The notes under the pieces: model-generated
What the model was told of the DNA's origin: nothing
Database searches by the model: none
What the model saw: the letters and a program-made list of their open reading frames with translations, nothing else
Shown: positions 19,181-40,016 of the stretch, in pieces
Numbering within the stretch: position 1 is the first letter of the stretch
Layout of the letters: each line of letters opens with the position of its first letter
Assembly: GCA_035308525.1 (NCBI GenBank)
Contig: DATGGM010000144.1
Location: forward strand, 39,600-103,599
DNA from: Bryobacteraceae bacterium
GTDB taxonomy: Bacteria; Acidobacteriota; Terriglobia; Bryobacterales; Bryobacteraceae
Direction of reading: 5' to 3'
DNA length: 64,000 nt
Translations under genes and position numbers: made by a program

Positions 19181-19390
19181 CCTTATGATTAAACCCACGT
19201 AGATCGGCATTTGACGTGAGGTTGGCCGTAAGCCGAACCGGTGAACCATGTGCACCACCATAAATCGGGTGCCCGCTTCATGAGTCTGCCCGTAACGAAA
19301 GGGTACTTCGTATGTGCTTAATCGTAAATAGCTGCTTTCTTGGGGCGCTGAGACGCTTATAAACTATTGAAAATAAATGGTACTGTTCTG

Positions 19391-19502
19391 TTACGCCCAA
19401 ACACATCCAGCGATCCCGTCTGTTATGAGCAGGTTGCAAGTCGTTTACGCACAGGCACACACGCCTTACGATGAAACCCATGGCGCTTACGCTCAAGCAC
19501 AT
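19391..19502. promoter_or_regulatory. Iteron-like direct repeats (consensus TTACGCnCAAnCACAT) in an AT-richer intergenic region upstream of the RepA-like gene
   Basis: ttacgcccaaacacat at 19391-19406; ttacgcacaggcacac at 19445-19460; ttacgatgaaacccat at 19466-19481; ttacgctcaagcacat at 19487-19502. The last three are spaced exactly 21 bp apart. TTACG half-sites recur at 19551 and at 19782 (overlapping the GTG start). A tandem atggttt-atggttt lies at 19591-19604. Confidence 0.45.
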
Positions 19503-19785
19503 GTCCGGCGCACCCCAAGGTATTCTTGCAAGACGTTGAAAAATATGATTTTACGTCACGCTTCGAACCTGTTTGAAGACCCTATATGGTATGGTTTATG
19601 GTTTGGATAAACTCTTACCAATAAGTATGCTCCCCGCACACCTGGCAGCGGATCATGGATGGTTTGGCGTGTGCTTCACAATAAAGACTATGGAGTCTCA
19701 TGGGCTTCATCGTAAATGTCTAGAACAAGATACCGGACTAATGTTACAAAAACAGAGGATGCACTTCCTGTTCTGAGGCGCTTAC

Positions 19786-21381
19786 GTGACAAAATACAAC
19801 CCGAAACCGGCGTTGGTGAATCTGTCCGTCGAGGAGGAGAACCTGGCGGCTATTCCTTTTGCCGTCCTGGAACGCCGAGTCGGCAAGCGAGTTGGCAAGA
19901 TCGAGATCAAAGGCACCAAAATCCTTCCCAACGGCAGCGAGATGGAAGTTGTCTGGCAGATTCAAGGCAACAATGAGCTGGGCCTGCCAACCGAACAGGA
20001 CCTCGATATCTTTGTGGTTCTGGGCGTGCTCACGTTCCGCAACAACTTTGCCAAGACGGTGACCTTCAGCGGCCGGGAAATTGCCCGGATGTTGAACATC
20101 AGTTCTGTGCATGGCAAGTTCTACCAGCGGCTCAAGCTTGCCATGGACCGGTTCATCCCCTTGCGGTTTCGCGCGCTCACGGCTACCGACCAGCAGGAAG
20201 AGGTCAAATGGAGCAATGTTTTCCAGGAGGCCAGTTTCCTGTTGGATCGCGAGAGCGGCCGTTGTACCGGCAGCATTACGTGGACCGACAAGCTGATTCA
20301 ATCCATCAACAACGGCTTCTTCCGGGTACTCGACGCAGGCCGCTACATGGAGTTGGACGGAATTACGGCCAAGCACTTATATCGCTTCCTGGCGATGGCC
20401 TTCGAGAAGACCGACCTGATTGTGGTGGATGCCCGTAAACTGGCGATGGAGCACGTGGGCATTCTGAACCCGCCGCACTATTTCTCCCGGCTCATGCAGA
20501 CCCTCGAACCGGCATTCGACCAGCTGATTAAGATTCAAGTGCTCGGGTCGTACAACGTGATTTCCGCAGAAGAGTGGCGGATTGCCCTGCATCGCCACCC
20601 TGCCTATGTGCCTGAGCGTAAGAGTCTCATGCTGCAGAGTACAACGTGTCCGGAATTGAGCCGCGCACACTGTCAGAACGTGCTGGAGAAGGCCGGCTTC
20701 TCCTACAGGCCCGCAGCCGCTTGGGCCATGGCGGCCGAAACCCCCGAACAGTTATACGCACTGGAACGCGCGGCGCAACTTGTGCTTGCCATGAAGCAGG
20801 AAGGAGTGCTGCCGCATGTTGCCGCCAGTTACGTATCGCGCGCGCTCGATATGGGCGGGCATACCGGCGAAGGCCAGGAACTGCTGGACTTCTGCGAAAT
20901 GGCGCTGGATCTCTGCCGACAAAAGCAGCAGAGTGGCCAAAGCTTGAAGAACGCCGCCGGACTACTGGTCAAGATAGTGAAAGATCCGGCAGCCCGCCGC
21001 CGCTCCATTGATGAACAGATGGAGAACGCCGCCAAGATGCGCTACCGCCAGCGGGAACGTTCCATTCTGCGGCAGAACCAGGAAGCCGAGGAGCGCACCC
21101 TGATTCTGGAATACGAACAGTTCCGTCAGTCCATGGCGCAGACCGCATTCGAGCAGCTCAGCGATTCCTCCAGGCTGGCGCTTGCCAAGGAGAAGTCCGA
21201 CGTGCTGCGCAGGGAAGGCCGCCTGGAAAGGATTGCCCCGGACGTGCGCGAGCACGAGGTAACCGAACTGATCTTGCAGGATCTCGCCAAAAACGAAGTT
21301 CCCCCTTACAGCCGATGGCTGCTCCGGAAACGCGCGGGGCAGGCCATGCTTCCATTTGCCTCCGAGACCGCCGTCGTCTAA
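19786..21381 (+). CDS. Replication initiator protein A (RepA/RPA)-like protein
   Basis: 531 aa, GTG start. The N-terminal pattern matches the order of conserved blocks in RPA-family plasmid initiators as I remember them: LAAIPFAVLERR...IEI...VVWQIQGNNELGLPTEQDLDIFVVLGVL...TVTFSGREIARML. More A/T at third codon positions than its neighbours. Confidence 0.55.
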   Translation: MTKYNPKPALVNLSVEEENLAAIPFAVLERRVGKRVGKIEIKGTKILPNGSEMEVVWQIQGNNELGLPTEQDLDIFVVLGVLTFRNNFAKTVTFSGREIARMLNISSVHGKFYQRLKLAMDRFIPLRFRALTATDQQEEVKWSNVFQEASFLLDRESGRCTGSITWTDKLIQSINNGFFRVLDAGRYMELDGITAKHLYRFLAMAFEKTDLIVVDARKLAMEHVGILNPPHYFSRLMQTLEPAFDQLIKIQVLGSYNVISAEEWRIALHRHPAYVPERKSLMLQSTTCPELSRAHCQNVLEKAGFSYRPAAAWAMAAETPEQLYALERAAQLVLAMKQEGVLPHVAASYVSRALDMGGHTGEGQELLDFCEMALDLCRQKQQSGQSLKNAAGLLVKIVKDPAARRRSIDEQMENAAKMRYRQRERSILRQNQEAEERTLILEYEQFRQSMAQTAFEQLSDSSRLALAKEKSDVLRREGRLERIAPDVREHEVTELILQDLAKNEVPPYSRWLLRKRAGQAMLPFASETAVV

Positions 21382-25133: not shown

Positions 25134-25270
25134 AGGACTCCAGAGTATCAGGGTTTTAAACGCGCGGCGGCGCGATCGCCCCAGGTACGGATGATTAGTA
25201 CACTTCCGATGAAAACCGTGCCCAAAAGATGCGGGCAGGCGATATACTTCAGTCTTTGGGTCAAACCGTT

Positions 25271-28200
25271 ATGAAATCATCAAAGCATACAGGGCGGGCT
25301 GTGGCGCTGCTCTGTGTACTAAGCACGGTGTCAATGGCCGCGACGGACGTCAGAAGTGCGTCCGGAGAAGCAACCGCCCGCGCCTTGGCGAACTACGGCC
25401 GGCTGCCCTTGATATTCGAAGAGAATCGCGGGCAGTCGGATCCGCGCGTGAAGTTTCTATCGCACGGGAATGCTCACTCGGTTCTGTTCGCCCCTTCCCA
25501 GGTCCAGCTGAATCTGCAACCCGCGGGCAAAGCCTCCCGCCAATCCTCCATCCGCATGCGATTCCCGGGCGCCAGCCGATCTCCCGTTTTGACCGGCGGC
25601 GAGCTCCAAAGCGCCGTAAGCAGCTACTTTGTGGGCCACGATCCCTCGAAGTGGGTGTCCGGTACGCCGAACTACCGACGGGTTCGTTATCGAGAGCTGT
25701 ACCCCGGCGTAGACCTGGTGTTTTACGGGAATCAGGGCCAGCTGGAGTACGACTTCGTGGTAGCCCCGGGCGCCAATCCCGCCGCCATCCGCCTGAACTT
25801 TGACGGTGTGAACAGCATGCGTCTGGATTCCGATGGCGATTTGCTGCTCGGCACGGCAAATGGAGAGATCCGCCAGCACAAGCCCATCGTCTATCAGGAA
25901 AGCGCCGGCACGCGCCAAACTATCGCGGGCCGCTACGTGCTCCGGCCGCGCCACCACGTGGCGTTTCAGGTTGCGCGCTACGACCCGCACCTTCCGCTAG
26001 TGATCGACCCCACTCTCTCATTTGCTACGTACCTCGGCTCGCCCGGAGCCGAGGAGTTCGGCATTTCGGCGACGGCCACCACTGCCAGCTATCCGGCGGT
26101 TGCGGTGGACGTGCAAGGAAACGTGTACCTGACCGGATATACCGGCGACGGGACCAGCTTCAGCGGGCACCCTCAGATCCTGACAAGCACCGGCCCCGAA
26201 GCCGGCGGCGGCTCCAAGGTATTTCTGGTCAAAATGAATGCGGCGGGGACCGCATTGTTTTATTCGGTCGTCTTTGGTGGTGGCCTGACCGACGGCGGCG
26301 GCGGAGTCGCGGTGGACGCACAGGGTAATGCCTATGTTACCGGCTTCACTGGCTCCACCAATTTCCCGGTCACCACGGGTGCGCCGCAAACCGCCAACAA
26401 TGGCTCAAATAATGCGTTCGTGACTAAGGTGAATGCCAGCGGAACGGCGCTGCTTTACTCCACCTTCCTGGGCGGAAGCGGCAATTTCTACGGGCGGGCA
26501 ATCGGTGTCGATCATTCCGGCAACGCATACGTTACAGGAACCGCCGCGCCGGCCGGGAGCACACCTTTTCCCGTAGTCAACCCTATCCCGGGTAGTACGG
26601 CATCCTCAGGATTTCTCACGGAGGTCAACGCGGCCGGCACGGCATTCACCTACTCCACCTATCTGCAGGCGGGCATCGGATACGGCATTGCCGTGGATGG
26701 CAGCGCAAATGTTTATGTGGCCGGATCCACCGGAACCGTGCTGTCCCCTTCGCCGGCGCAGGGATACGTTCTGAAAGTTAACGCCGGCGGGACCCGTATC
26801 GATTATGGCCCGGTGCTTCTGGGACACAATACCGTGAGCCAAACCGTCGGCTTCGGAATCGCCGTGGACGCGCTCGGCAGTGCCTATGTAACCGGCATGA
26901 CCAACGATCCGAGCTTTCCGCAACTCAAAAACGCCGCGCAAGCCACGTATGGCGGCGGCTCGTATGACGCCTTCGCGGTCAAGTTGGATTCTGGCGGCAA
27001 TCTGGTTTACGGCACGTACATCGGCGGCCTGGGCGGCAATATTCTCCCGGAACGGGGATCGGGCATTGCAGTGGATGTGCTGGGGAACGCGTATGTGGCC
27101 GGCACCACCCAGTGCATCGGTTTTCCCACCACGAACTCGATTTCCGCGACGCGAAATGGCGGATCTGCCGTACTGATGCACGGCACCGTGCAAGGTGTGA
27201 CTTCAGAGTGGTCCCCCGCCACCCTGGCCGGCAGTTTCGACCAGGTCACCGCGCTGGCCTTCGATTCGAACGGCAACCTGTACGCCGGCGCTAGTGCAGT
27301 CTCCGCCGCTGGCGGTGGGATATACAAGCTGTTGTCCGGCGAGAGCGCTTGGACGTCTGCGTCGAGCGGCATCACTTCGACCACGATCGACTCCATCGCG
27401 GTGGACCCGAACAATGCGTCCGCCGTTTACGCGGCAGGCGGAGGTAACATTTATCAGACCTTCAATGGTGGCGGGAACTGGACCCAACTTCCCCAAGGCA
27501 TCGGTTCTCCCGCTGTTCTGGCGGTTGCCAAGACCAGCCCGTCGACGATCTATGTGGGCACCCCCACGAGTGTAATGTACAGCACAAACGCCGGCTCTAC
27601 CTGGAATAACCCGGTGATTGGGCCGTCCGGTACTATCAATGCCATTGTCGTAGATCCAAATAGTTCCAAAACGGCGTACGCGGGCACCTCCAAGGGCGCA
27701 TATATGACGGTTGATGCCGGCGTCAACTGGACTTTGGTGACCCATCTATCCAACGGTACGCTGGGAGCCGTGACCGGCCTGGCTGTCTACAGCGGCACCA
27801 ACCCGAGCACTGTATTTGCCGCGGCTAGCAACGGATTGTTCTACACCACAAACGCCAGTGCCGGTTGGTCGCCGGTAAGTTTCGCGCCGGGATTCACCGG
27901 GACGCCGCAACTCGTGGCCGTGGATGCCGCCGAAAATGTTTATGTGGCCTTACCAGGATCTGGTATCGTGACTGCCACCGGTGGAGGCACGCTGCAAAGT
28001 GACTGGAGCCCGCTCACCTACAACGGGCTTACCCAAAACCAGATCTTGGCCCTGTCCGTGCCGCCCACAGGGGCAGGAGCTTACGCCGGCATTGTTTCAG
28101 CCACCACGGCGTTCCTGACTGAAATCAGTCCGACCGGAGCATTCCTGTCTTCCACCTGCATTGGCGGATCCGACAACAACATGGGCCAGAGCATAGCGGT

Positions 28201-30040
28201 AACGCCGGGCTTCGTATATGTTTCGGGTCTGACTACCGCCACGAATTTCCCAGCCACCCCAAGCGCTATCCAGACGTCGAACGCCGGGCTCTATGATGCG
28301 TTCGTGATGGGGATCTATACCAATACCGTAATTACCTCATCGCCTGCAGGCGCCTCCATTACGGTGGCGGGAAGCGGCTGCTCTCCCGGACCCTATACAG
28401 CACCCGTGGGCCTTACATGGAATGCGGGAGTTTCTTGTACGGTCACCTTTACTGATCCGCAAAACATCGGCGGTATTGAGTACGAATTCCAATCTTCAAC
28501 CGTGGATGGCAGCGAGATCTCGCACGCCAACCCGATAACTGTTAACTCCGGCAATGGCTTTGTGCAGATTAATGCAACCTTCAGTGCGGTCACCGGTACC
28601 GGACCGGGAATGGCCACGCATTTCTCGGTGGCGGCCCCGTCAAACGCGACGGCGGGGACTCCCATTCAATTTACTGTGACGGCTCTCGATTCCAATAACC
28701 AGACAGCCACGAGCTATACCGATCCGGTGCACTTCACAAGCACGGATCCCGCGGCTACGTTGCCGGGGGATGGCACGTTGACCAATGGCGTAGGAACGTT
28801 CTCGGCGTCACTGGTTACTGAGGGCTCCATCACGATTACGGCCGGGGATTTATTGCAGCCCCTCATTAACGGGACCAGCAACAGCATCACGGTGTCCCTG
28901 TCTACCGCCGGGTTGCGTTTTGTTTCCATGCCTCCCTGCCGCGTGGTGGACACACGCGACAACAGCAAGCCTTCCGGCTTTGGTCCGCCATCCATGACCG
29001 GTGGTACGTCGCGTTCCTTTGCCGTTCCCAACGGACCTTGTGCAGGTATTCCGGGCTCCGCTCAGGCTTATGCACTGAACGTGACGGTGGTGCCCCAGGT
29101 TGAACTGGGCTATCTAACCATATGGCCTACCGGCCAAAACCAGCCACTGGCGTCGACGCTGAATTCCCTGGATGGGCGAATCAAAGCCAACGCGGCGATC
29201 GTGCCGGCAGGGAGCGGCGGGGCTGTTAGCGTCTTTGTGACCGACAACACGGACGTGGTCCTGGACATCAATGGTTACTTTGTGCCGGCTTCGGATTCCA
29301 GCGCATTAGCTTTCTATCCGATGGCTCCCTGCCGGCTGGTGGATACACGGCCGGGCGCGCCGTCCACCGTCATCACCGGACAGTTGGCGGCGGATAGTAC
29401 AACCACGCTGCCAATCCTGTCGAGCACTTGCAACGTACCGTCGGTGGCGCAGGCCTACTCGTTGAACTTCACGCTAGTGCCTCCAGCGCCAGTGGGGTAT
29501 CTGACGGTGTGGCCTACAGGTCAGAGTCAGCCGACTGTATCCACGCTGAACGACCTGACGGGAACGATTGTGGCGAACGCGGCGATAGAGCCGGCGGGAA
29601 CAAGTGGGGATATCAATGTATTTGTGACCAGCGCGACCGATCTGGTGGTGGATATCAACGGGTATTTCGCGCCCCCGGCAACCGGAGGCTTGTCACTGTA
29701 TAACCTGCCGCCGTGCCGGGTGCTGGACACGCGCACGCCTTTGGGTTCTCCGCCGTTCGTGGGGGCAATCAATGTGAACGTGCAGGGGAGCGGATGCGGG
29801 GGAACCGGTGCGGTGCTGGGGTATGTGTTCAATGCCACCGTGGTGCCGGCCGGCCCGCTGGGCTACCTGACATTATGGCCGCAAGGGAGCGCGCAGCCGG
29901 TGGTTTCGACGCTGAACGCGCTGGATGGAGCCATAACCAGCAACATGGCGATCGTACCCACGAACAACACCGATGTCAGTGCCTTTGCTACAAGCACCAC
30001 TTATTTGATCCTCGACATTTTCGGGTATTTTGGACCATAG
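25271..30040 (+). CDS. Giant secreted protein 1: N-terminal conserved domain, SBBP beta-propeller repeats, Asp-box/BNR-like propeller, then the shared C-terminal cassette (InlB-B-repeat-like, Ig-like, 3x unassigned module)
   Basis: ATG 25271 gives MKSSKHTGRAVALLCVLSTVSMAA (an alternative ATG at 25229 is also possible). SBBP-type turns: GNVYLTGYTG, GNAYVTGFTGSTNFPVT, GSAYVTGMTNDPSFPQL. Asp-box-like turns: FNGGGNWT, STNAGSTWN, TVDAGVNWT, TTNASAGWS. Cassette runs from VITSSPAGASITVAGSGC (28328) to the stop. Confidence 0.85.
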   Translation: MKSSKHTGRAVALLCVLSTVSMAATDVRSASGEATARALANYGRLPLIFEENRGQSDPRVKFLSHGNAHSVLFAPSQVQLNLQPAGKASRQSSIRMRFPGASRSPVLTGGELQSAVSSYFVGHDPSKWVSGTPNYRRVRYRELYPGVDLVFYGNQGQLEYDFVVAPGANPAAIRLNFDGVNSMRLDSDGDLLLGTANGEIRQHKPIVYQESAGTRQTIAGRYVLRPRHHVAFQVARYDPHLPLVIDPTLSFATYLGSPGAEEFGISATATTASYPAVAVDVQGNVYLTGYTGDGTSFSGHPQILTSTGPEAGGGSKVFLVKMNAAGTALFYSVVFGGGLTDGGGGVAVDAQGNAYVTGFTGSTNFPVTTGAPQTANNGSNNAFVTKVNASGTALLYSTFLGGSGNFYGRAIGVDHSGNAYVTGTAAPAGSTPFPVVNPIPGSTASSGFLTEVNAAGTAFTYSTYLQAGIGYGIAVDGSANVYVAGSTGTVLSPSPAQGYVLKVNAGGTRIDYGPVLLGHNTVSQTVGFGIAVDALGSAYVTGMTNDPSFPQLKNAAQATYGGGSYDAFAVKLDSGGNLVYGTYIGGLGGNILPERGSGIAVDVLGNAYVAGTTQCIGFPTTNSISATRNGGSAVLMHGTVQGVTSEWSPATLAGSFDQVTALAFDSNGNLYAGASAVSAAGGGIYKLLSGESAWTSASSGITSTTIDSIAVDPNNASAVYAAGGGNIYQTFNGGGNWTQLPQGIGSPAVLAVAKTSPSTIYVGTPTSVMYSTNAGSTWNNPVIGPSGTINAIVVDPNSSKTAYAGTSKGAYMTVDAGVNWTLVTHLSNGTLGAVTGLAVYSGTNPSTVFAAASNGLFYTTNASAGWSPVSFAPGFTGTPQLVAVDAAENVYVALPGSGIVTATGGGTLQSDWSPLTYNGLTQNQILALSVPPTGAGAYAGIVSATTAFLTEISPTGAFLSSTCIGGSDNNMGQSIAVTPGFVYVSGLTTATNFPATPSAIQTSNAGLYDAFVMGIYTNTVITSSPAGASITVAGSGCSPGPYTAPVGLTWNAGVSCTVTFTDPQNIGGIEYEFQSSTVDGSEISHANPITVNSGNGFVQINATFSAVTGTGPGMATHFSVAAPSNATAGTPIQFTVTALDSNNQTATSYTDPVHFTSTDPAATLPGDGTLTNGVGTFSASLVTEGSITITAGDLLQPLINGTSNSITVSLSTAGLRFVSMPPCRVVDTRDNSKPSGFGPPSMTGGTSRSFAVPNGPCAGIPGSAQAYALNVTVVPQVELGYLTIWPTGQNQPLASTLNSLDGRIKANAAIVPAGSGGAVSVFVTDNTDVVLDINGYFVPASDSSALAFYPMAPCRLVDTRPGAPSTVITGQLAADSTTTLPILSSTCNVPSVAQAYSLNFTLVPPAPVGYLTVWPTGQSQPTVSTLNDLTGTIVANAAIEPAGTSGDINVFVTSATDLVVDINGYFAPPATGGLSLYNLPPCRVLDTRTPLGSPPFVGAINVNVQGSGCGGTGAVLGYVFNATVVPAGPLGYLTLWPQGSAQPVVSTLNALDGAITSNMAIVPTNNTDVSAFATSTTYLILDIFGYFGP
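28328..30037 (+). repeat. Shared 3' cassette, copy 1 (570 codons); internal triplicated module at 28910-29302, 29303-29686 and 29687-30037
   Basis: Collinear with 31798-33510 and 35952-37664 at the protein level and largely at the nucleotide level. The internal repeat boundaries were read from GLRFVSMPPCR, ALAFYPMAPCR and GLSLYNLPPCR. Confidence 0.85.
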
Positions 30041-30156: not shown

Positions 30157-33100
30157 ATGGGACCCGTTCGAAGGCGTGGCATTAACATGACAACCGGCCG
30201 CTGCTTGCGGCGGCTTTGTCGGGCACTATTGTTGGAATCATGCGGGCTGGCGGCCTTCTTCAACCTGCAGGCACAGGTCAATGTCACCACTTTTCACAAT
30301 GACAATGCCCGCGACGGCCAGAACCTCAGCGAATACGTCCTGACCCCTGCCAATGTCGGCTCGAGTCAATTCGGTCAGCTATTTGTTCAACCCGTGGACG
30401 GAAATGTTTATGCCCAGCCGCTGTACGTCTCCAACGTGCAGATCGCCGGGGCCACGCACAACGTGGTGTACCTGGTCACCGAACATGATAGTGTCTACGC
30501 TTTCGACGCCGACAGTAACTCCGGGCCGAACGCCGGACCGCTGTGGCACGTGAGCTTTATCAACCCGGCGGCCGGAGTCACCACTGTCAACAGTCAGAAC
30601 GATTTGAATTGCCCGAACATTGCCCCGGAAGTAGGCATTACCGGAACGCCGGCTATTGATCTGAGCTCGAACACGCTGTATGTCGTGGCCAAGACAAAGG
30701 AAAACAATACCTTCGTCCAGCGTCTCCATGCTCTGGATATCACCAGCGGAGTGGAGAAGTTCGGCGGGCCGGTAATGATCCAGGCGGTCGTGCCGGGCAC
30801 GGGAGCCGGCAGCAGCGGCGGACAGGTGACCTTCGATCCGCAGTGGGAGAACCAGCGTTCGGGCCTTTTCCTGCTGAACGGCATGGTTTACATTGGCTGG
30901 GCCGCACACTGCGATATCCCTCCGTATCACGGCTGGATGATGGCATATGACGCCCAATCGCTGCAGCAGGTCGCCGTGTGGAATGCCACGCCCAACGGGT
31001 CGGATGGCGGCGTGTGGCAGAGCGGTGCGGCGCCCGCCGTCGACACTGCGGGGAACATCTACCTGGCCACCGGAAACGGAACTTTTGATCTGAATACTGA
31101 CGGCCGGGATGCCGGCGACAGTGTGCTGAGATTCGGGGCCCCCGGCAGCGGCGTCGGTATTCCAATTCTGGACTACTTTACTCCGTACAACCAGGCCACT
31201 CTCAGCGTCGAAGATGCCGACCTTGGATCGGGAGGCGTCATCCTGCTGCCCGACCAGCCGCCAGGATCTCCGCACCAGCACCTGTTGGTCGAAATCGACA
31301 AAGAGGGTTCGGTATATCTGATTAACCGCGATAATATGGGTCACTTCAACGCCGCCAACAATATCCAGATCGTGCAATGGCTGCCCCAAATTCTCGGTGG
31401 CCTCTGGGGAACGCCGGCCTTCTGGAATAACAGGTTCTACGTGGGAGCCAGGAACGATTCCCTGCAGGCTTTTTTGTTTAACGCGAATAACGCCGGCATG
31501 CTGTCGACCTCCCCGATATCGGCCTCTCAGAACACTTTCTACTATCCGGGGACGACGCCGTCGATTTCAGCCAACGGAGACACGAACGCGATAGTGTGGG
31601 CTCTCGACGTGGGCAACAACTCCGCGATACTGCATGCCTATGATGCCACCAACCTCGCCACTGAGCTGTATAACTCGACTCAGAATGGGCCGCCGCCCGG
31701 GCCGTCAATCAACTTCATTGTCCCCACCATCGCCAACGGCAAAGTGTTTGTGGGTACGGCTACCCAGCTGGCGGTCTATGGCCTGCTCACCAATCGCGTC
31801 ACGATTACGTCATCGCCTTCGGGCGCGTCCCTGACGCTGGCGGGAACCGGCTGCGTTCCGGGAATCTACACAACACCGGCGTACCTGACCTGGAGCGCGG
31901 GAGTTTCCTGCACCATCAATTTCACGGACCCACAAAAGATAGCCGGCATGGAATACGAGTTCCAGTCTTCTGGTGTGAATGGCAGCGCGGTGTCTCACGC
32001 CAACCCGCAGATCCTTTATTACGGCGGCGGTACCATGCTGATCAATGCCACTTTCGGTGTGGTTAGTGGCACCGGGCCGGGAACAGCCCAGCATTTCTCG
32101 GTGGTGGCTCCGTCCGTCGCGACGGCGGGGACGCCTGTTCAGTTCACGGTGACGGCATTGGATGGTTCTGGTCATATGGTCACCACCTATACCGACCCGG
32201 TGCACTTTGCCAGTACGGACCCGGCCGCCGTGTTGCCTGGGGATGCCGTGTTGACCAATGGCGTAGGAACATTTTCGGCAGCGTTGCTCACGGCGGGCGT
32301 GGTCACGCTCACAGCCAGCGACTTGTTGTGGCCGGCCATCGCCGGAACCAGCGGCGGTATCGCAGTGTCGCAGTCCACCGCGGGATTGCGTTTCGTTACC
32401 ATGCCTCCCTGCCGCTTGGTGGATACACGGGATAACCTCAAGCCGGGGGGCTTTGGTCCGCCGTCCATCTCCGGAGGCGCGTCGCGTTCCTTCGCCATCC
32501 CTGACGGACCGTGCGCCGGTATCCCTGCCGCGGCCCAGGCTTATTCTCTCAACGTTACGGTGGTGCCGCATGGCGAACTAAGCTATTTGACCGTGTGGCC
32601 CACAGGCCAGAGCCAACCTCTTGTATCCACACTGAATTCTTTGGATGGTCGCATCAAAGCCAACGCCGCCGTCATCTCAGCCGGCACCGCCGGTGCCATA
32701 AGCGTGTTTGCCACCAACAATATGGACCTGGTTTTGGACATCGACGGTTATTTCGTACCCGCCTCGGACTCGGCGGCCTTGGCTTTCTATCCGATGACTC
32801 CCTGCCGGCTGGTGGACACACGGCCGGGTGCGCCGTCCACTATCATCACCGGACGGTTGGCGGCCAATAGCACGACCACGCTGCCGATCCCGTCGAGCAG
32901 TTGCCAGGTTCCGTCGGCGGCGCAGGCCTACTCACTGAACTTCACGTTGGTGCCGCCGGGACCGGTGGCTTATCTGACGGTGTGGCCTACCGGCCAAAGT
33001 CAGCCGATTGTATCCACGCTGAATGACCTGACGGGGACGATCGTGGCGAACGCCGCAATCACTCCGGTGGGGACGGAGGGCGATATCGATGTATTTGTGA

Positions 33101-33513
33101 CCGGCGCGACGGATCTGGTGGTGGATATCAACGGGTATTTCGCGCCTGCGTCAACTGCAGGATTGTCCTTATACACGCTGCCGCCGTGCCGGGTGCTGGA
33201 CACGCGTATGCCGCCGGGTTCCCCGCCTTTCACTGGGGCAATCAATGTGAACGTGGAGGCGAGCGGATGCGGGGGAACCGGTGCGGCGCTGGGGTATGTG
33301 CTCAATGCCTCCGTGGTACCGGCGGGCCTGCTGGGCTACCTGACGTTGTGGCCGCAAGGGAGCCCGCAGCCGGTGGCATCGACGCTGAACGCGCTGGACG
33401 GGGCGATTACCAGCAACATGGCCATCGTGCCCACCGGCAACACGGAAGTCAGCGCGTTTGCCGCGGCCAACACATATCTGATTCTCGACCTGTTTGGCTA
33501 TTTTGCGCCCTAA
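30157..33513 (+). CDS. Giant secreted protein 2: PQQ/BamB-like beta-propeller head plus the shared C-terminal cassette
   Basis: 1118 aa (alternative ATG at 30187: MTTGRCLRRLCRALLLESCGLAAFFNLQAQ). The head starts VTTFHNDNARDGQN...GNVYAQPLYV...VYLVTEHDSVYAFDA, typical of PQQ-like propeller proteins. Cassette runs from VTITSSPSGASLTLAGTGC (31798). Confidence 0.85.
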   Translation: MGPVRRRGINMTTGRCLRRLCRALLLESCGLAAFFNLQAQVNVTTFHNDNARDGQNLSEYVLTPANVGSSQFGQLFVQPVDGNVYAQPLYVSNVQIAGATHNVVYLVTEHDSVYAFDADSNSGPNAGPLWHVSFINPAAGVTTVNSQNDLNCPNIAPEVGITGTPAIDLSSNTLYVVAKTKENNTFVQRLHALDITSGVEKFGGPVMIQAVVPGTGAGSSGGQVTFDPQWENQRSGLFLLNGMVYIGWAAHCDIPPYHGWMMAYDAQSLQQVAVWNATPNGSDGGVWQSGAAPAVDTAGNIYLATGNGTFDLNTDGRDAGDSVLRFGAPGSGVGIPILDYFTPYNQATLSVEDADLGSGGVILLPDQPPGSPHQHLLVEIDKEGSVYLINRDNMGHFNAANNIQIVQWLPQILGGLWGTPAFWNNRFYVGARNDSLQAFLFNANNAGMLSTSPISASQNTFYYPGTTPSISANGDTNAIVWALDVGNNSAILHAYDATNLATELYNSTQNGPPPGPSINFIVPTIANGKVFVGTATQLAVYGLLTNRVTITSSPSGASLTLAGTGCVPGIYTTPAYLTWSAGVSCTINFTDPQKIAGMEYEFQSSGVNGSAVSHANPQILYYGGGTMLINATFGVVSGTGPGTAQHFSVVAPSVATAGTPVQFTVTALDGSGHMVTTYTDPVHFASTDPAAVLPGDAVLTNGVGTFSAALLTAGVVTLTASDLLWPAIAGTSGGIAVSQSTAGLRFVTMPPCRLVDTRDNLKPGGFGPPSISGGASRSFAIPDGPCAGIPAAAQAYSLNVTVVPHGELSYLTVWPTGQSQPLVSTLNSLDGRIKANAAVISAGTAGAISVFATNNMDLVLDIDGYFVPASDSAALAFYPMTPCRLVDTRPGAPSTIITGRLAANSTTTLPIPSSSCQVPSAAQAYSLNFTLVPPGPVAYLTVWPTGQSQPIVSTLNDLTGTIVANAAITPVGTEGDIDVFVTGATDLVVDINGYFAPASTAGLSLYTLPPCRVLDTRMPPGSPPFTGAINVNVEASGCGGTGAALGYVLNASVVPAGLLGYLTLWPQGSPQPVASTLNALDGAITSNMAIVPTGNTEVSAFAAANTYLILDLFGYFAP
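31798..33510 (+). repeat. Shared 3' cassette, copy 2 (571 codons); internal modules at 32383-32775, 32776-33159 and 33160-33510
   Basis: The 35-nt string gatctggtggtggatatcaacgggtatttcgcgcc is identical at 33112-33146 and 29639-29673. I count 19 differences in the last 117 aa against copy 1. Confidence 0.85.
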
Positions 33514-33581: not shown

Positions 33582-36500
33582 ATGAACTCGCTTGTTCGTG
33601 CCTGCCTGGTCGCCGTTCTCTTGGCCGGTTGGTCCTTCGCGTTCTCGGCCCGAAGTTACGAAAACCTCCCGTTGACATTTGAACGGCGCGCGATGGAAAC
33701 CGGCGGGCAGCGATTCGTCGCGCATGTTTCCGGGCACAGGGTGGCATTTGGCTATTCCGGCGCAGTCTTCGAGAGCCCCGGCCCCGGCGGTAATCGGCCC
33801 GAACCGGTGCTGCGTTTCGCGGGTGCCCGCCCGCACACGCTGCCGCAAGCGGCCGGACCACAAGCCGGTAGCGCCAACTATTTTCTGGGCCCGCATCCCG
33901 AGCAATGGCGCACCGGTGTCCCACTGTTCAGGCAAATTAAATATCCCGGCCTTTATCCTGGCATTGACCTGATCTTTTACGGAAACCAAAACCGGCTGGA
34001 ATACGATCTCGTTGTGGCGTCCGGCGCATCCTGGCGAGCCGTCCGCTTGGCCTTTAGCAGCGCCGAAGATGTTCAAATCGACGGCCACGGCGCCCTGAGA
34101 TTGCGGACCGGTTCCGGCTGGATCACGCAAGCGCAGCCGGTCATCTATCAGCAAGCCGGCGCAGGCCGGCGGCGGATCTCCGGGCATTATGCCGTCACCG
34201 GCGTCAATGAGGTTGGGTTCGAAATCGGCCCTTATGACCCGGGCTTGCCGTTGATCATCGATCCGACACTGGCATTCGCCAGCTACCTGGGCGGCAGCGG
34301 CGACGATTACGGCCATGCGGTTGCCATCGACGGCCAGGGATGCGCTTACGTCGTTGGAGAAACCGGATCGGCGGATTTTCCCATGCTGAATCCCGAACAG
34401 GCCTCGCGGTCGGGCGCCAGCGACGTGTTTGTCACCAAGTGGAATGCAAGTGGTACGAGCTTGGTCTACGCCACCTATATCGGCGGCGGCAGCCGGGATG
34501 TGGGCCTGGGCGTGGCGCTGGATGCGGCCGGCAACGCCTACGTCACCGGCTTCACCTATTCCGCGGATTTCCCTCTCACCCAGGGAGTCTTGCGCGGCAA
34601 TTTTGCGGGCATCAGCAAAGCCTTCGTCCTCAAGTTGAATCCGAGTGGCAACGCACTGATTTACTCGACTTTCCTGGGCGGCAGCGGCGATGATTACGCC
34701 GCCGGAATCGCCGTGGACCCAGCCGGGGAAGCGCACATTGCCGGCTATACCTCCTCTATGGATTTTCCAGCCACAGCCGGGGCGTTTCAGCCCACTTACG
34801 GCGGCGGTTCTTATGACGGATTCATGGCCAAGCTGAACCCGGCGGGATCCGCCCTCGTCTATGCCACCTACCTGGGAGGCATCGCCAACGATACGGCCGC
34901 CGCTATCGCGCTGGACCCGTCCGGGAATATCTATGTGACGGGCCAGACGCAATCATCGAATTTTCCGACGTTGAACCCCGTCCAGCCCGTCAATAGCGAA
35001 AGTGACGCCTTCGTCGTGAAGATGAATGCGGCCGGCCGGGTTGCCTACGCTACGTTTTTGGGGGGAACGGGACTCAATAGCGGAACCGCCATCGCGGCGG
35101 ACGCGGCCGGGAATGCGTATGTCACCGGCTTTACCGACGCATCGGATTTTCCGGTCACCTATGGCGCCTACCAGATCAACAACAGCAGCTCTTATGATGT
35201 CTTTGTAGCCGTATTGAACCCATCCGGCAGCAGCATACTGAGCGCGACCTACTTGGGCGGCTCCGGATCGGATATCGGTTACGGAATTGCGCTGGATGGA
35301 TCGGGTAACGTCTTCGTCGCAGGTTCGACGAACTCGATCGACTTCCCCGTGTACGCTCCCATGAGTTCTGGATATCAGGGTAATGGCGATGCCTTCGTCG
35401 CCTCTTTTAATAATGGATTGACCAGCCTGTTGTATAGCGCTTATTTCGGGGGAAGCGGGAGCGATGTGGCGGCCGGCGCCGCCGTGGACAGCACTGGAAA
35501 TGCATTCATCACGGGATGGACGAGCAGCGGAACATCGTCCGTGGGCCTGCCCGTCACGCCAGGTGCATTTCAACCCATGGGTTTAGGCGGCTTAGACGCC
35601 TTTCTGGCGAAAATCGCCAGCCTTGCTGATCCGCCCCAGTCCCCCGCGGCGAACACGAGTATGCCGGCGGCGGTAACCAGCAGCACCGCCACACTGACCG
35701 GATCCGTGAATCCGAATGGGGCTGATACTCAAATCTACTTCAGCTACAGCACGAACAGCTCCATGAATGGCAGCATCTCCACACCTCGGCAGGATGCCGG
35801 CGCCGGTACGGGTACGCTGCCGGTCAACGCCGGCATCACAGGTCTCATCCCAAACACCACATATTACTTTCAAGCCCGCGCGTCCAACAGCGCGGGGAGT
35901 GCACAAGGGGGAGTGATGAGCTTCACGACGGCTTCACTTGCCGCTGTCGCCGTCACCCTGACTTCATCGCCGTCCGGCGCTTCCATCACGTTGGCGGGTA
36001 CCGGCTGCGCTCCCGGGAGTTATACAACATCGGCGGATGTGACCTGGAGCGCGGGAATTGCATGTACGATTAGCTTCACGGATCCACAAAGTATCGGTGG
36101 CGTGGAATACCAGTTCCAGTCCTCCACGGTCAATGGCAGCGCGGTCACTCATGCCAATCCGATTATTCTTGACCCGGCCGGCGGTGCTCTGTCGATCAAT
36201 GCGGTCTTCACCGCGGTCAACGGTACCGGCACCACCACGCATTTCTCGGTAATGGCTCCGTCCACCGCCACGGCAGGGATACCCCTCTCATTCACCGTGA
36301 CGGCGCTGGATGCGAGTAATAGAACAGTCACCACCTACTCCGATCCGGTGCACTTCACCAGCACGGATCCCTCGGCGGTTTTGCCTGGCGATGCGCTGCT
36401 GAGCAAAGGCGTAGGGACCTTTTCGTCGTCGTTGGTCACTGTGGGCACAGCCACGCTCACCGCCGGCGACCTGTTATCATCCGGCATTAACGGTACCAGC

Positions 36501-37667
36501 GGGGCTATCGCGGTGTCACAGTCGGCCGCGGGATTGCGTTTTATATCGATGCCGCCCTGCCGGGTTGTAGACACACGGGATGCTACCAAGCCGTCCGGCT
36601 TTGGTCCGCCGTCGATGGCCGGCGCCACATCGCGTTCCTTTCCCTTTCCCGAGGGACCTTGCGGCATTCCAGCCACCGCCCAGGCGTATTCACTGAACGT
36701 GACTGTTGTTCCGCATGTCGGCCTGGGTTACTTGACCATCTGGCCGGCCGGCCAGAGTGAGCCGGTGGTCTCGACGCTGAATTCTCTGGATGGCCGGATC
36801 AAAGCCAACGCGGCGATTGTCCCGGCGGGTAGCCAGGGAGCCATCAGCGTGTTTGCCACCAATGCTACCGATGTGGTGCTGGATATCAACGGCTACTTTG
36901 TGCCGGCTACGGATTCCGGCGCCTTAGCTTTCTTTCCGATGCCGCCCTGCCGGTTGGCCGACACGCGGCCAGGCGCGCCGTCCACCATCATCACTGGGAT
37001 ATTGGCGGCGGGGAGCATCACCACGCTGCCGGTCCTGTCAGGCAACTGCCATGTACCGCCGGCGGCCCAGGCGTATTCGCTGAACTTCACACTAGTGCCG
37101 CCTGGACCGGTGGCATATTTGACCGTGTACCCCACGGGAGAGAACCGGCCTACGACATCGGCTCTGAACGATCTGACGGGGACCATCGTCGCCGATGCTG
37201 CGATTGCACCGGCGGGCTCCGGAGGCAGCCTCGATGTTTTTGTAACCCAAACGACGGACCTGGTGGTGGATATCAATGGATACTTTGCACCCGCTGCGGC
37301 AGGAGGGTTGTCGCTGTATAGTCTGCCGCCCTGCCGGGTGCTGGACACGCGCACGCCGCAGGGTACGCCGCCTTTCGCAGGAGCCATGAATGTAAACGTG
37401 GAGGCCAGCGGATGCGGAGGAACGGCTGCGGCGCAGGCGTATGTCTTCAATGCCACGGTAGTCCCGGCTGCTTCGCTGGGCTACCTGACGTTATGGCCGG
37501 AAGGGAGCGCGCAGCCGTTGGCTTCGACCTTGAACGCGCTGGATGCAGCCATCACCAGCAATATGGCGATCGTGCCCACGAACGACACGAACAACACGGA
37601 AGTCAGCGCCTTTGCGGCGAATAATACCTACTTGATTCTCGACGTGTTCGGTTATTTCGCGCCGTAA
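33582..37667 (+). CDS. Giant secreted protein 3: N-terminal conserved domain, SBBP repeats, FN3-like unit, plus the shared C-terminal cassette
   Basis: 1361 aa. Signal-like MNSLVRACLVAVLLAGWSFAFSA. LPLTFE...GNQNRLEYDLVV is similar to the protein 1 N-terminal domain. Many GNAYVTGFT..DFP turns. FN3-like LTGSVNPNGADTQIYFSYS...LIPNTTYYFQARASNSAG. Cassette runs from VTLTSSPSGASITLAGTGC (35952). Confidence 0.85.
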   Translation: MNSLVRACLVAVLLAGWSFAFSARSYENLPLTFERRAMETGGQRFVAHVSGHRVAFGYSGAVFESPGPGGNRPEPVLRFAGARPHTLPQAAGPQAGSANYFLGPHPEQWRTGVPLFRQIKYPGLYPGIDLIFYGNQNRLEYDLVVASGASWRAVRLAFSSAEDVQIDGHGALRLRTGSGWITQAQPVIYQQAGAGRRRISGHYAVTGVNEVGFEIGPYDPGLPLIIDPTLAFASYLGGSGDDYGHAVAIDGQGCAYVVGETGSADFPMLNPEQASRSGASDVFVTKWNASGTSLVYATYIGGGSRDVGLGVALDAAGNAYVTGFTYSADFPLTQGVLRGNFAGISKAFVLKLNPSGNALIYSTFLGGSGDDYAAGIAVDPAGEAHIAGYTSSMDFPATAGAFQPTYGGGSYDGFMAKLNPAGSALVYATYLGGIANDTAAAIALDPSGNIYVTGQTQSSNFPTLNPVQPVNSESDAFVVKMNAAGRVAYATFLGGTGLNSGTAIAADAAGNAYVTGFTDASDFPVTYGAYQINNSSSYDVFVAVLNPSGSSILSATYLGGSGSDIGYGIALDGSGNVFVAGSTNSIDFPVYAPMSSGYQGNGDAFVASFNNGLTSLLYSAYFGGSGSDVAAGAAVDSTGNAFITGWTSSGTSSVGLPVTPGAFQPMGLGGLDAFLAKIASLADPPQSPAANTSMPAAVTSSTATLTGSVNPNGADTQIYFSYSTNSSMNGSISTPRQDAGAGTGTLPVNAGITGLIPNTTYYFQARASNSAGSAQGGVMSFTTASLAAVAVTLTSSPSGASITLAGTGCAPGSYTTSADVTWSAGIACTISFTDPQSIGGVEYQFQSSTVNGSAVTHANPIILDPAGGALSINAVFTAVNGTGTTTHFSVMAPSTATAGIPLSFTVTALDASNRTVTTYSDPVHFTSTDPSAVLPGDALLSKGVGTFSSSLVTVGTATLTAGDLLSSGINGTSGAIAVSQSAAGLRFISMPPCRVVDTRDATKPSGFGPPSMAGATSRSFPFPEGPCGIPATAQAYSLNVTVVPHVGLGYLTIWPAGQSEPVVSTLNSLDGRIKANAAIVPAGSQGAISVFATNATDVVLDINGYFVPATDSGALAFFPMPPCRLADTRPGAPSTIITGILAAGSITTLPVLSGNCHVPPAAQAYSLNFTLVPPGPVAYLTVYPTGENRPTTSALNDLTGTIVADAAIAPAGSGGSLDVFVTQTTDLVVDINGYFAPAAAGGLSLYSLPPCRVLDTRTPQGTPPFAGAMNVNVEASGCGGTAAAQAYVFNATVVPAASLGYLTLWPEGSAQPLASTLNALDAAITSNMAIVPTNDTNNTEVSAFAANNTYLILDVFGYFAP
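35952..37664 (+). repeat. Shared 3' cassette, copy 3 (571 codons); internal modules at 36531-36920, 36921-37304 and 37305-37664
   Basis: Same domain order and motifs as the other copies. Carries one 1-codon deletion (EGPCGIP) and one 3-codon insertion (NDTNNTEV) relative to copies 1 and 2. Confidence 0.85.
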
Positions 37668-37886: not shown

Positions 37887-40016
37887 ATGGCTCAAACACC
37901 ATCGCTCGTCAATTCACCTCCTAAGAGCGCCGCGACGAGAGTCTTTTTTTCAACGCTAGCCGGCAATCCAGGCTTGTATGCCTGGGTGGGCCTCGTGTTC
38001 GCGATCGCATGTGTCTTTAAAGCATTGCCGTCGAAATCAATGTACCTTTGGGTGTCCAGCGATACCCTGTGGCCGGTGGATCTCTTTATCGATACGCTTC
38101 ACGACGGATTTTCATTTCACGGCTGGTTCTTTTCGGTTGGGCCCTGTTGGATTCCTGACATCGTTCTTGTAGGCCTGTGCTATCTACCGCTGCGAGACCC
38201 GATTTTAACGACCCTCGTCGCGGGAGCGCTCCACCTCATCATCCTGGCCGCTGGGTTGTGCCTGTGCTGGCGCGCGCTGAGGCTGGCATACCGGAAGCTG
38301 GCAGACACGTTAACGCTGGCCTCCGGGATCGCCATTACTCTATGGGTTGCGTTCCATTCCGATGTGCTGTATCCGGGGTTGTACCAGTTCCTGCTGCCGC
38401 AAACGCATGTCGGAAATCTCATCATGCATGTCTACGCCATCTGGCTGGCGCTGCTGCTGATCCAACTCCCGCGCGGTCGTAGGCGCGTCTTTGCCGCCGC
38501 TGGATTTTCCGTCGTCTGCATGCTGGCGGGTTTGAGTAATCTGATGTTTTTCCCGCACACCGTCGTCCCGCTTTCCATGGCAGCGCTGGCCCTGGCCCTT
38601 GCGGGAGCCCTGCCGGTGCGGCGGGCCGCACTGCCCGTGCTTCTTGCCTGGCCGTCGGCGGTGGCCGGGGCAGCCGCCTACCGGATCTTCTTTCCGGCCA
38701 TGGGTCTCGGTGCACAGTCGTCGATCGGATATGCAGCCTGGGGAAAAGCCGCGCGTACCTTTGTTGTAGGTGCGTTTGCTGCATTTGCCCGTTTTGACCT
38801 GCTGCATATTGCCGCCGCGTTGTGGTTTGCCGCCTGCGTGCTTGGAGGCGCGATTCTCTTACGGCGCCTCCGTCGTGCGAAAAACGTTCAACCCGAACGT
38901 CGTGTGCTCCTCGTGTTTTTTTTCTTCACGTCTGCCGCGGCGTCGCTTCTCGGACCGGCCACTATGATCATCGGCGGAAGCAATGGCTTGACGCAGTTCA
39001 ATAACTACATGTGGACGATGCACTACATGCACCCCACATTCCTCCTTCCGTTGCTCGCCTGGCCTTCGCTGCTCGCCTTAGTCCCTGCGTTTTCCCTTCC
39101 TCGGGTCATCCGGCGCGCCCTACGCGCTTCAGCCGCGCTGGCATGCGTGATTGTGCCGTTGATGGCCTTCGAGCGTCTTCCGGCCCCAGCCTTCCCCTTG
39201 TCGCAGTATGCGCCCGAGTTTGTCCGCGCTCTCGACCGGGAAGCCCGGCAGTATGGAATAAGGTACGGACTCGCGGGCTATTGGCAGGCGCGCCTCATCA
39301 CGCTGCTCTCGCGCACGGGACTGCGAGTGTACCCGGTGGATGGGTCGATCAACCCCTTCCTGATCGTCTCCAACCGGGAGTGGTTCGCCAAATCGCTCGA
39401 AAACCGGTCGCGGAAGCCCTGCTTCAGTTTCGTAGTCCTCAATGACCCGTTATGGAAGCTTACCCGTGCCACCGCCGTAGAGCACGCTGGGGAACCCTCA
39501 AACCAATTCGACGCCGCGGGCGTGCCCGTGCTCGTGTATGCAAAAGAAGAAACCGGGCATGTTGTGCCGCGCTGCGACGCGTTGACGTTGCCCAACGTCG
39601 ATACGACCATCACAATGGACCGGCGGTTGTCCGGCTACAGAAGCGCTATGAGCAGTCCTGTCGGAATGATTCGAGCGACGATCTCGGAAAGGATGCGCCT
39701 TCCTGTCCGTATCAGCAATCCCGGAAAAGAACCTTGGACTAGTGTCGGTAGTTTCCCGGTGACACTGAGTTATAAATGGTTCAAAGACGGCCGGATGTTG
39801 CCGATAGAAGGCGAGCGTACATCTCTGCTGGAAGCCTTGCTTCCCGGCGCGACAGCGTCATTGTCCGCCCGCGTCGTGGCGCCGCCGGAGCCGGGCAGTT
39901 ATACCCTTCGCTTTTCCCTCGTTCAAGAGGGCATTACCTGGTTCATGTCAGCGGGAGACAGGACCCTGGACATCCCAGCCAGCGTGATCGCAACGGGCGC
40001 TCAGCTGGGGCGCTGA
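37887..40016 (+). CDS. Polytopic membrane protein (putative GT-C-fold glycosyltransferase) with a C-terminal soluble region ending in an Ig-like domain
   Basis: 709 aa. Roughly a dozen hydrophobic segments over the first ~430 aa, with an acidic first loop SSDTLWPVDLFIDTLHDG. The C-terminal ~115 aa (~39670-40013) share the ...LSYKWF...YTLRFSLVQEGITWF pattern with the end of the 46981-48291 protein. Confidence 0.5.
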   Translation: MAQTPSLVNSPPKSAATRVFFSTLAGNPGLYAWVGLVFAIACVFKALPSKSMYLWVSSDTLWPVDLFIDTLHDGFSFHGWFFSVGPCWIPDIVLVGLCYLPLRDPILTTLVAGALHLIILAAGLCLCWRALRLAYRKLADTLTLASGIAITLWVAFHSDVLYPGLYQFLLPQTHVGNLIMHVYAIWLALLLIQLPRGRRRVFAAAGFSVVCMLAGLSNLMFFPHTVVPLSMAALALALAGALPVRRAALPVLLAWPSAVAGAAAYRIFFPAMGLGAQSSIGYAAWGKAARTFVVGAFAAFARFDLLHIAAALWFAACVLGGAILLRRLRRAKNVQPERRVLLVFFFFTSAAASLLGPATMIIGGSNGLTQFNNYMWTMHYMHPTFLLPLLAWPSLLALVPAFSLPRVIRRALRASAALACVIVPLMAFERLPAPAFPLSQYAPEFVRALDREARQYGIRYGLAGYWQARLITLLSRTGLRVYPVDGSINPFLIVSNREWFAKSLENRSRKPCFSFVVLNDPLWKLTRATAVEHAGEPSNQFDAAGVPVLVYAKEETGHVVPRCDALTLPNVDTTITMDRRLSGYRSAMSSPVGMIRATISERMRLPVRISNPGKEPWTSVGSFPVTLSYKWFKDGRMLPIEGERTSLLEALLPGATASLSARVVAPPEPGSYTLRFSLVQEGITWFMSAGDRTLDIPASVIATGAQLGR

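Follow-up and report, generated by a model that had tools for sequence, protein, structure and literature searches.

What is the C-terminal block that three neighbouring genes share, and what could it do for the proteins that carry it? The genes, here called A, B and C, lie on the same strand of a 64,000-nucleotide stretch of DNA from a Bryobacteraceae bacterium (GenBank assembly GCA_035308525.1, contig DATGGM010000144.1, positions 39,600 to 103,599; this whole stretch is hereafter the window), and in each of them the block consists of three tandem modules of about 125 residues apiece. A sequence-only reading of the window had suggested that the module may be widespread but uncharacterised, and that it perhaps tethers diverse heads to the polysaccharide made by the surrounding genes. 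Our analyses establish a real and very widespread domain block for which neither a family model nor a close solved structure exists, and they suggest that the functional unit is the triple. For its role we favour, with a probability of roughly 0.45, an autonomous pseudo-trimeric binding module formed by a single chain, whose job would most likely be to keep the passenger on the envelope of the producing cell.

The modules are unmistakably related to one another. All those in the window carry the same landmarks in the order first described for them (PCRxxDTR, a second Cys, AQAYxLNxT, GYLTxWP, STLN, NAAI and DxxGYF), and translation confirms the lengths given earlier, 393, 384 and 351 nt in genes A and B and 390, 384 and 360 nt in gene C. 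Local alignments between the modules of protein A score 244–319, against 33–35 ± 6–7 for shuffled sequences (z = 30–45). Inside one window protein the modules are 37–55% identical, whereas modules at the same position in A, B and C share 75–85% of their residues; the greater similarity between proteins than within them had been pointed out before and is borne out.

The inability to name the family was equally well founded. Searched with hmmscan against the Pfam-A and NCBIfam models (E ≤ 1), neither single modules nor the triple nor the whole proteins gave anything relevant over the modules, the whole proteins being matched in their N-terminal domains only (DUF7948, SBBP and BNR/sortilin-type propellers in A; DUF7948 and SBBP in C). 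No hmmscan match was obtained to the profiles of C1q (PF00386), TNF (PF00229), SLH (PF00395) or CWB2 (PF04122), and none of the profiles of carbohydrate-binding module (CBM) families matched over the module; the CBM_6 match of one relative (P0172) falls in its C-terminal PPC-like repeats, outside the triple. Precomputed Pfam annotation is blank over the module among the matches listed, the families given there being of Ig-like, propeller or PKD types, and a sequence search of the PDB returned nothing relevant. The flocculin domain PA14 was considered as a relative on the strength of a 36-residue PDB sequence match (E = 0.05) that straddles a module junction; the match was discounted because neither Pfam nor the fold searches back it, PA14 being absent from the Foldseek matches of both the triple and the single module. 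Carriers of the block are named in NCBI and UniRef either 'hypothetical protein' or after a neighbouring domain, as in 'PKD domain-containing protein', and our literature searches found no description of the module.

The family is large. Searching with a single module finds 24,133 clusters (50% identity) at E ≤ 0.001, of which 13,534 reach E ≤ 1e-10, in keeping with the earlier impression of a widespread domain, and a search with the triple finds at least 5,479 clusters at 90% identity. In genomes sampled at one per GTDB species, relatives are encoded by at least 542 stretches; the 78 best loci all come from Acidobacteriota, bar one metagenome-assembled genome (MAG) labelled Binatia, and represent Bryobacterales/Solibacteraceae, Acidobacteriaceae, Korobacteraceae and 'Angelobacter', several genomes having multiple loci. 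Overall, the family dominates in Terriglobia (Acidobacteriota) and is present, at about 30% identity, in Streptomyces, Kitasatospora and Micrococcales. A tblastn search of plasmids also recovered the whole triple, at 25–33% identity over 65–99% of the query, in the actinobacterial genera Streptomyces (19 records), Curtobacterium, Arthrobacter, Paenarthrobacter and Aeromicrobium, and a search seeded with a Streptomyces triple gave at least 3,024 further proteins, of which the 120 listed are from Streptomyces or Kitasatospora wherever the organism is named. The sequence-only reading had placed the same motif order in secreted actinobacterial proteins, sometimes next to cell-wall hydrolases; the motif order was indeed found there, but hydrolase partners were not found in our sample. 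A phage genome collection gave no sequence match.

The copy number of the block is fixed. In samples biased to high scorers, so that rare exceptions may exist, exactly three copies are present in 268 of the 269 acidobacterial-type proteins retrieved (counted with a profile built from the nine window modules), in 98 of 109 module-bearing stop-to-stop open reading frames (ORFs) from 80 loci, in 6/6 actinobacterial plasmid proteins and in 120/120 proteins of Streptomyces and Kitasatospora. The sole four-copy call (P0032) is a short record beginning inside a module, and the re-examined ORFs with other counts were split by frameshifts or cut by the ends of contigs or loci in MAGs. The spacing is similarly constant: about 90% of 231 proteins have 15–16 residues between the GYF of a module and the Cys of the module that follows. 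Of 271 acidobacterial proteins, 97 show the differentiated 1-2-3 pattern of the window, and in the remainder the copies inside one protein are 60–91% identical. The inference that the triplication predates the spread of the cassette holds for the window subfamily; in most other members, the copies of a triple are more alike. Judged by their similarity, the copies have been re-homogenised or re-triplicated while their number stayed at three, and this number holds even where they are 74–91% identical (e.g. P0123). Such homogenised triples are telling because unequal recombination should otherwise shift the copy number, and their persistence at three argues for selection on the number itself.

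Structure prediction points in the same direction. AlphaFold2 models the 376-residue triple (79 aligned sequences) with a mean predicted local distance difference test score (pLDDT) of 96.0 and a predicted template modelling score (pTM) of 0.92, the latter implying a defined relative arrangement of the three modules; module 2 of protein A modelled singly has a pLDDT of 95.8 and eight strands. Each module is predicted to be all-beta, with eight strands of which the first and the last are long, and the three modules are confidently predicted to form one rigid body of eight-stranded jelly-roll beta-sandwiches. Taken together, the pTM, the fixed copy number and the constant linkers suggest that the modules most probably pack around a pseudo-threefold axis, in the manner of the subunits of a TNF/C1q-like trimer. 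Because the copy number is fixed and the model is one rigid body, the functional unit would be the triple and not the single module, on which the sequence-only reading had centred.

These results also bear on another alternative, that the triple is a row of spacer or stalk domains, each independent of the others and without a joint function, like beads on a string, their number being a historical accident of the spread of a cassette. The block clearly travels: the roughly 200 residues preceding it are 77% identical between A and B although the N-terminal passengers of the two proteins are dissimilar, which indicates that the block moves as a cassette and that this cassette extends beyond the triple. 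The region itself has no Pfam match in A or B, and in related proteins Flg_new_2 (InlB B-repeat-like) was scored at its position. Such mobility would suit a spacer, as would the frequency of tandem Ig-like spacers in proteins of this kind. A string of beads should, however, hardly keep an invariant copy number over two phyla, homogenised triples included, nor short linkers of constant length, a pTM of 0.92 for the three-domain model and a terminal instead of an internal position, and we regard the spacer explanation as very unlikely.

Comparison of folds places the predicted module in the class of jelly-roll sandwiches, without a close solved relative. The best PDB match of the triple in Foldseek is a single-chain engineered C1q globular head (5hzf; E 4.4e-5, TM-score 0.27), with an alignment of 382 columns that takes in all three domains of the triple. 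Further PDB matches are CBM-like jelly-rolls (Cry and Vip3 toxins, Xyn30D, EngBF, factor V) and the triple jelly-roll of Sulfolobus turreted icosahedral virus (STIV), and the viral library BFVD gave picornavirus P1 polyproteins, giant-virus ORFs and tail-fibre proteins. For the single module, E 1e-3 is not reached by any PDB match, and the highest TM-score is 0.54. Several of its leading matches are homotrimeric beta-sandwiches (BC2L-C-Nt, the Bd2133 fibre tip, the KHP40 cement protein, OX40L, BclA/BxpB and Pgp3), and it also matched jelly-rolls of small-virus capsids, CBM6 and CBM4. The matches of C1q/TNF type (5hzf, OX40L, BC2L-C-Nt, BclA) have TM-scores of 0.27–0.45 and, for the single module, E ≥ 1.8e-3. 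As the PDB and BFVD matches are all weak and at the level of fold class, we claim homology to none of them.

BC2L-C-Nt is a TNF-like fucose lectin and a trimer (PMC3164656), and a trimeric lectin or adhesin nature is described for such beta-sandwiches (PMC3164656, PMC10769870). Like C1q, the BC2L-C N-terminal lectin, the Bdellovibrio MAT fibre tips and BclA, in which three units form a head put to terminal lectin or adhesin use and which include the best Foldseek matches, the module is predicted to be a jelly-roll beta-sandwich of similar size. Unlike these heads, which consist of three separate chains (the single-chain 5hzf being engineered), the triple is naturally one chain, and it differs further in the low TM-scores (0.27–0.54) and identities (7–20%), in having 8 modelled strands in place of the canonical 10, and in the absence of a Pfam match to C1q or TNF. 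With CBM6, CBM4, CBM35 and the discoidin (F5/8 type C) domains, the predicted module shares the general fold class, an extracellular location and the habit of being appended to other domains; it departs from jelly-roll CBMs in matching none of their profiles, in being an obligate triple where their copy number varies, and in its mostly non-catalytic partners. Consecutive jelly-rolls in one chain, forming a pseudo-symmetric body, are also seen in STIV A223, double-jelly-roll capsid proteins and picornavirus P1, but there the likeness consists of weak structural matches alone, and the triple is cellular, secreted and without a sequence match in the phage collection.

Conservation within the module is high, about 30 positions being at least 90% conserved among 813 acidobacterial modules. 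R11, D14, R16, A51, D117 and G120 are kept in both phyla, T15, N83, N92 and Y121 mostly so, and the residues conserved across the phyla sit in the first and last strands. Could these polar residues form an active site? An enzyme with R11, D14, R16, N83, N92 and D117 as its invariant catalytic set would account for their being kept in both phyla and at all three module positions, but there is no similarity to any catalytic family, and to have an active site repeated threefold would be out of the ordinary. The residues are, besides, found in the first and last strands, which in jelly-roll CBMs are the usual place of structural salt bridges or Ca2+. Catalysis is, to our minds, hardly credible. 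The two Cys residues follow another pattern: they occur together in 800 of the 813 acidobacterial modules and are both missing in 18/18 actinobacterial ones. A pair that is present together or absent together is the pattern expected of a disulfide gained in one lineage, and the data fit one predicted disulfide per module, as had been suggested. This covarying pair in the Acidobacteria, along with the signal peptides, upholds the extracytoplasmic location proposed at the outset. Another conserved feature is an N-x-S/T tripeptide (profile columns 55–57; e.g. window 29072–29080, LNVT), found in 769 of the 813 acidobacterial modules but in only 8 of the 18 from Actinobacteria, and probably serving as a polar pair with a structural role on a single strand.

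The block was first described as the end of each cassette, which is accurate for the great majority of proteins but not for all. In 266 of 269 acidobacterial-type proteins, no more than 5 residues separate the end of the last copy from the C-terminus; several proteins, however, carry the triple at the N-terminus just after the signal peptide. Such is the arrangement in P0172, where four PPC-like repeats follow, in an ORF of locus L044 continuing with He_PIG/PKD domains, and in RHS-repeat proteins of Curtobacterium and Paenarthrobacter; in a Curtobacterium 'cutinase family protein', the triple occupies residues 46–423 and the cutinase 852–1059. This placement decides against a secretion or sorting domain read by a dedicated export or attachment machinery, like the C-terminal domain of the type IX secretion system. 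A sorting signal would explain why the block stands at the extreme C-terminus of so many acidobacterial proteins with otherwise unrelated passengers and why the paralogous family is large, but the idea is rejected because N-terminal triples, right behind the signal peptide, exist. The family is found, too, in monoderm Actinobacteria, the triple at 376 residues is far larger than known sorting tags, none of the NCBIfam sorting-domain models matched, and no conserved neighbouring machinery was seen in the three contexts inspected; sorting has correspondingly little probability.

The passengers are varied. Among 41 diverse acidobacterial members, propellers (SBBP 9, NHL 5, FG-GAP 3, sortilin 3) and Ig-like arrays (Flg_new_2 11, BACON 9, DUF11 4) are common and catalytic domains rare, most passengers being non-enzymatic domains of surface type; this supports the earlier remark on diverse propeller heads and adds Ig-like ones. 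The actinobacterial partners in our sample are PKD, LamG, cutinase and RHS. The RHS-type toxin WapA of B. subtilis has N-terminal CWB2 repeats, which the actinobacterial triple-RHS proteins would parallel. On Streptomyces plasmids (L082, L085), the gene for PKD plus triple repeatedly adjoins genes for a vWA-domain protein, a DUF4097 protein and a D-Ala-D-Ala carboxypeptidase, and at L085 it is followed by an 'immunity 49 family' gene; on small plasmids of Curtobacterium and Paenarthrobacter (L083, L084, L087), the triple-cutinase and triple-RHS genes adjoin conjugation genes, namely those for a TraM-recognition coupling protein and a relaxase.

A binding or tethering role is a reasonable suggestion for the predicted module, because its fold is a jelly-roll of the kind that lectins and CBMs use; the question is then what would be bound. 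The triple could be a lectin or adhesin head for foreign ligands, such as plant or fungal polysaccharides, soil polymers or competitor cells, and so target its passenger to them. The same fold is common to CBM6, CBM4, CBM35, discoidin domains, TNF-like lectins and the fibre tips of predators and phages, and fusion to a cutinase and to RHS toxins is where the targeting of a substrate or receptor is usual. Heads that bind targets normally diversify, however, whereas the triple is conserved between paralogues and across orders (50–85% identity) and has no obvious hypervariable loops, and its passengers are mostly not enzymes. Foreign targeting is the main rival of our preferred reading, and we consider it rather unlikely.

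The bodies might also bind one another. A self-assembly or lattice domain would have them oligomerise into a surface layer, sheath or matrix scaffold, like capsid jelly-rolls that tile, and it would draw on the structural matches to jelly-rolls of capsids and cement proteins and to the Ena subunits of spore appendages, on the several paralogues and tandem gene arrays of some genomes, and on a high conservation compatible with homotypic contacts. The structural matches are nevertheless all weak, no sign of higher-order assembly was seen, and the fusions to RHS toxins and cutinases fit poorly, which leaves self-assembly distinctly improbable.

We return to anchoring on the producer's own envelope. 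That paralogues whose passengers are unrelated should share so strongly conserved a triple (75–85% in the window) suggests a single partner common to them all, and three copies, short linkers, a rigid model, placement at either terminus, diverse passengers and conservation together make up an organisational signature like that of SLH and CWB2. Triplets of these domains form pseudo-trimers that hold many surface proteins on wall polysaccharide, and each is made up of three tandem copies that are not identical and are all needed, standing at the N- or the C-terminus of a wide range of proteins (PMC4973711, PMC5817068, PMC6081394). The block resembles them, in organisation only, by its exactly three tandem copies, its occurrence at either terminus of many unrelated secreted passengers and its large paralogous families; it differs in that SLH is helical and CWB2 alpha/beta, the predicted module being an all-beta jelly-roll with no sequence relationship to either, in the much larger size of its copies (about 125 residues each), in its home mainly in diderm Acidobacteria, and in its ligand binding, which is putative. 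The mechanism that we envisage follows the same anchoring logic as the pseudo-trimers of three SLH or three CWB2 domains in Gram-positive surface proteins. The passenger would be exported by way of its Sec signal peptide, and the triple, as an autonomous, extracytoplasmic, putative binding unit found at one or the other end of passengers as different as propellers, Ig-like arrays, PPC repeats, a cutinase and RHS toxins, would most likely hold it non-covalently on the cell's own envelope through a conserved envelope glycopolymer. That the proteins bind a ligand, what kind of ligand it would be and where in the cell they would reside are all things that we infer.

Several observations weigh against anchoring of this kind. 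The triple is acidic, with a median isoelectric point (pI) of 4.8, unlike what binding to an anionic polymer by net charge would suggest; a net-positive charge favouring such binding was looked for and not found. As the family occurs both in diderm Acidobacteria and in monoderm Actinobacteria, a single common self-ligand is not obvious, because the two envelopes share little beyond peptidoglycan. Anchoring would also require a means for these proteins to cross, or be retained on, the acidobacterial outer membrane. The low Foldseek TM-scores (0.27 between the triple and 5hzf, no higher than 0.54 with a single module) mean that the arrangement may differ from that of C1q and TNF and that the fold is assigned just at the level of a jelly-roll sandwich. 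Inheritance of the block as a unit could partly account for the fixed copy number, and the association with polysaccharide genes, to which we turn below, is not general across the family. In its boldest form, the anchoring reading would make the block a surface-display system of two phyla, a pseudo-trimeric jelly-roll counterpart of the SLH and CWB2 anchors that binds one conserved envelope glycan and defines much of the surface proteome of Terriglobia in soil; this extension we hold to be doubtful.

The window itself is a large polysaccharide locus of Wzx/Wzy type with genes A–C in its middle. Among its products are one sugar transferase for initiation, a WecA-like GT4, several enzymes of GT1 and one of GT2, as well as GDP-mannose dehydratase, UDP-glucose dehydrogenase, an epimerase and methyltransferases, and also an AsnB-like amidotransferase, a Wzy_C protein and a flippase. 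It was natural to propose that the modules tether their passengers to the product of these genes, but the proposal finds no general support: by a rough phmmer test, a homologue of any window sugar gene lies within 8 kb in only 6 of 79 related loci, and three Pfam-annotated neighbourhoods of triple genes are unrelated. For these two reasons, we dropped the association with polysaccharide loci as a rule for the family.

Acidobacteria are among the most abundant soil bacteria, and the organisation of their cell surface is poorly understood. One unnamed domain block marks tens of thousands of secreted acidobacterial proteins; a profile model for the family would give thousands of 'hypothetical proteins' in two phyla a consistent annotation. 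Should the triple be an anchor or a lectin, the acidobacterial surface proteome could be predicted from sequence by means of it, and it would offer a candidate tag for displaying proteins at the surface and a route to the polymer that organises that surface. If true, a natural single-chain trimeric jelly-roll head would moreover be a clear example of evolution from oligomer to repeat.

Genes A–C and their parts are listed in the table.

Table. Positions in the window of the three genes, their pre-module regions and their modules.
Feature	Coordinates	Strand	Length	Remarks
Gene A	25229..30040	+	1603 aa	Signal peptide, DUF7948, SBBP and BNR/sortilin-type propellers, pre-module region of about 200 aa, triple module
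Gene A pre-module region	28304..28909	+		aa 1026–1227
Gene A module 1	28910..29302	+	131 aa	
Gene A module 2	29303..29686	+	128 aa	
Gene A module 3	29687..30037	+	117 aa	First loop shorter; reaches C-terminus
Gene B	30157..33513	+	1118 aa	Signal peptide, own weakly propeller-like N-terminal passenger, pre-module region, triple module
Gene B pre-module region	31774..32382			aa 540–742
Gene B module 1	32383..32775	+	131 aa	
Gene B module 2	32776..33159	+	128 aa	
Gene B module 3	33160..33510	+	117 aa	
Gene C	33582..37667	+	1361 aa	Signal peptide, DUF7948, SBBP propeller, FN3-like stretch, pre-module region, triple module
Gene C module 1	36531..36920	+	130 aa	
Gene C module 2	36921..37304	+	128 aa	
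Gene C module 3	37305..37664	+	120 aa	

Elsewhere in the family, too, triple-module genes often occur in same-strand tandem arrays of 2–5, and at least two such genes are present in 22 of 80 loci; several of the copies in MAGs are split by frameshifts. Directly downstream of gene C, a 709-residue ORF (37887–40016) is without the triple module and has no significant family match, just a weak Ig-like match near its C-terminus. Farther upstream in the polysaccharide locus, a 531-residue ORF (19786–21381) has a match to Replication initiator protein A that stays under the Pfam cut-off (E 8.5e-6) and coincides with a dip in GC content (0.544 at 18001–20000 against about 0.60–0.62), and the region may be a mobile insertion. 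Towards the far end of the window, a 1383-residue ORF on the forward strand (55931–60082), with no Pfam match, overlaps a 931-residue ORF on the opposite strand (56915–59710), and the GC skew is strongly negative from about 56 kb on.

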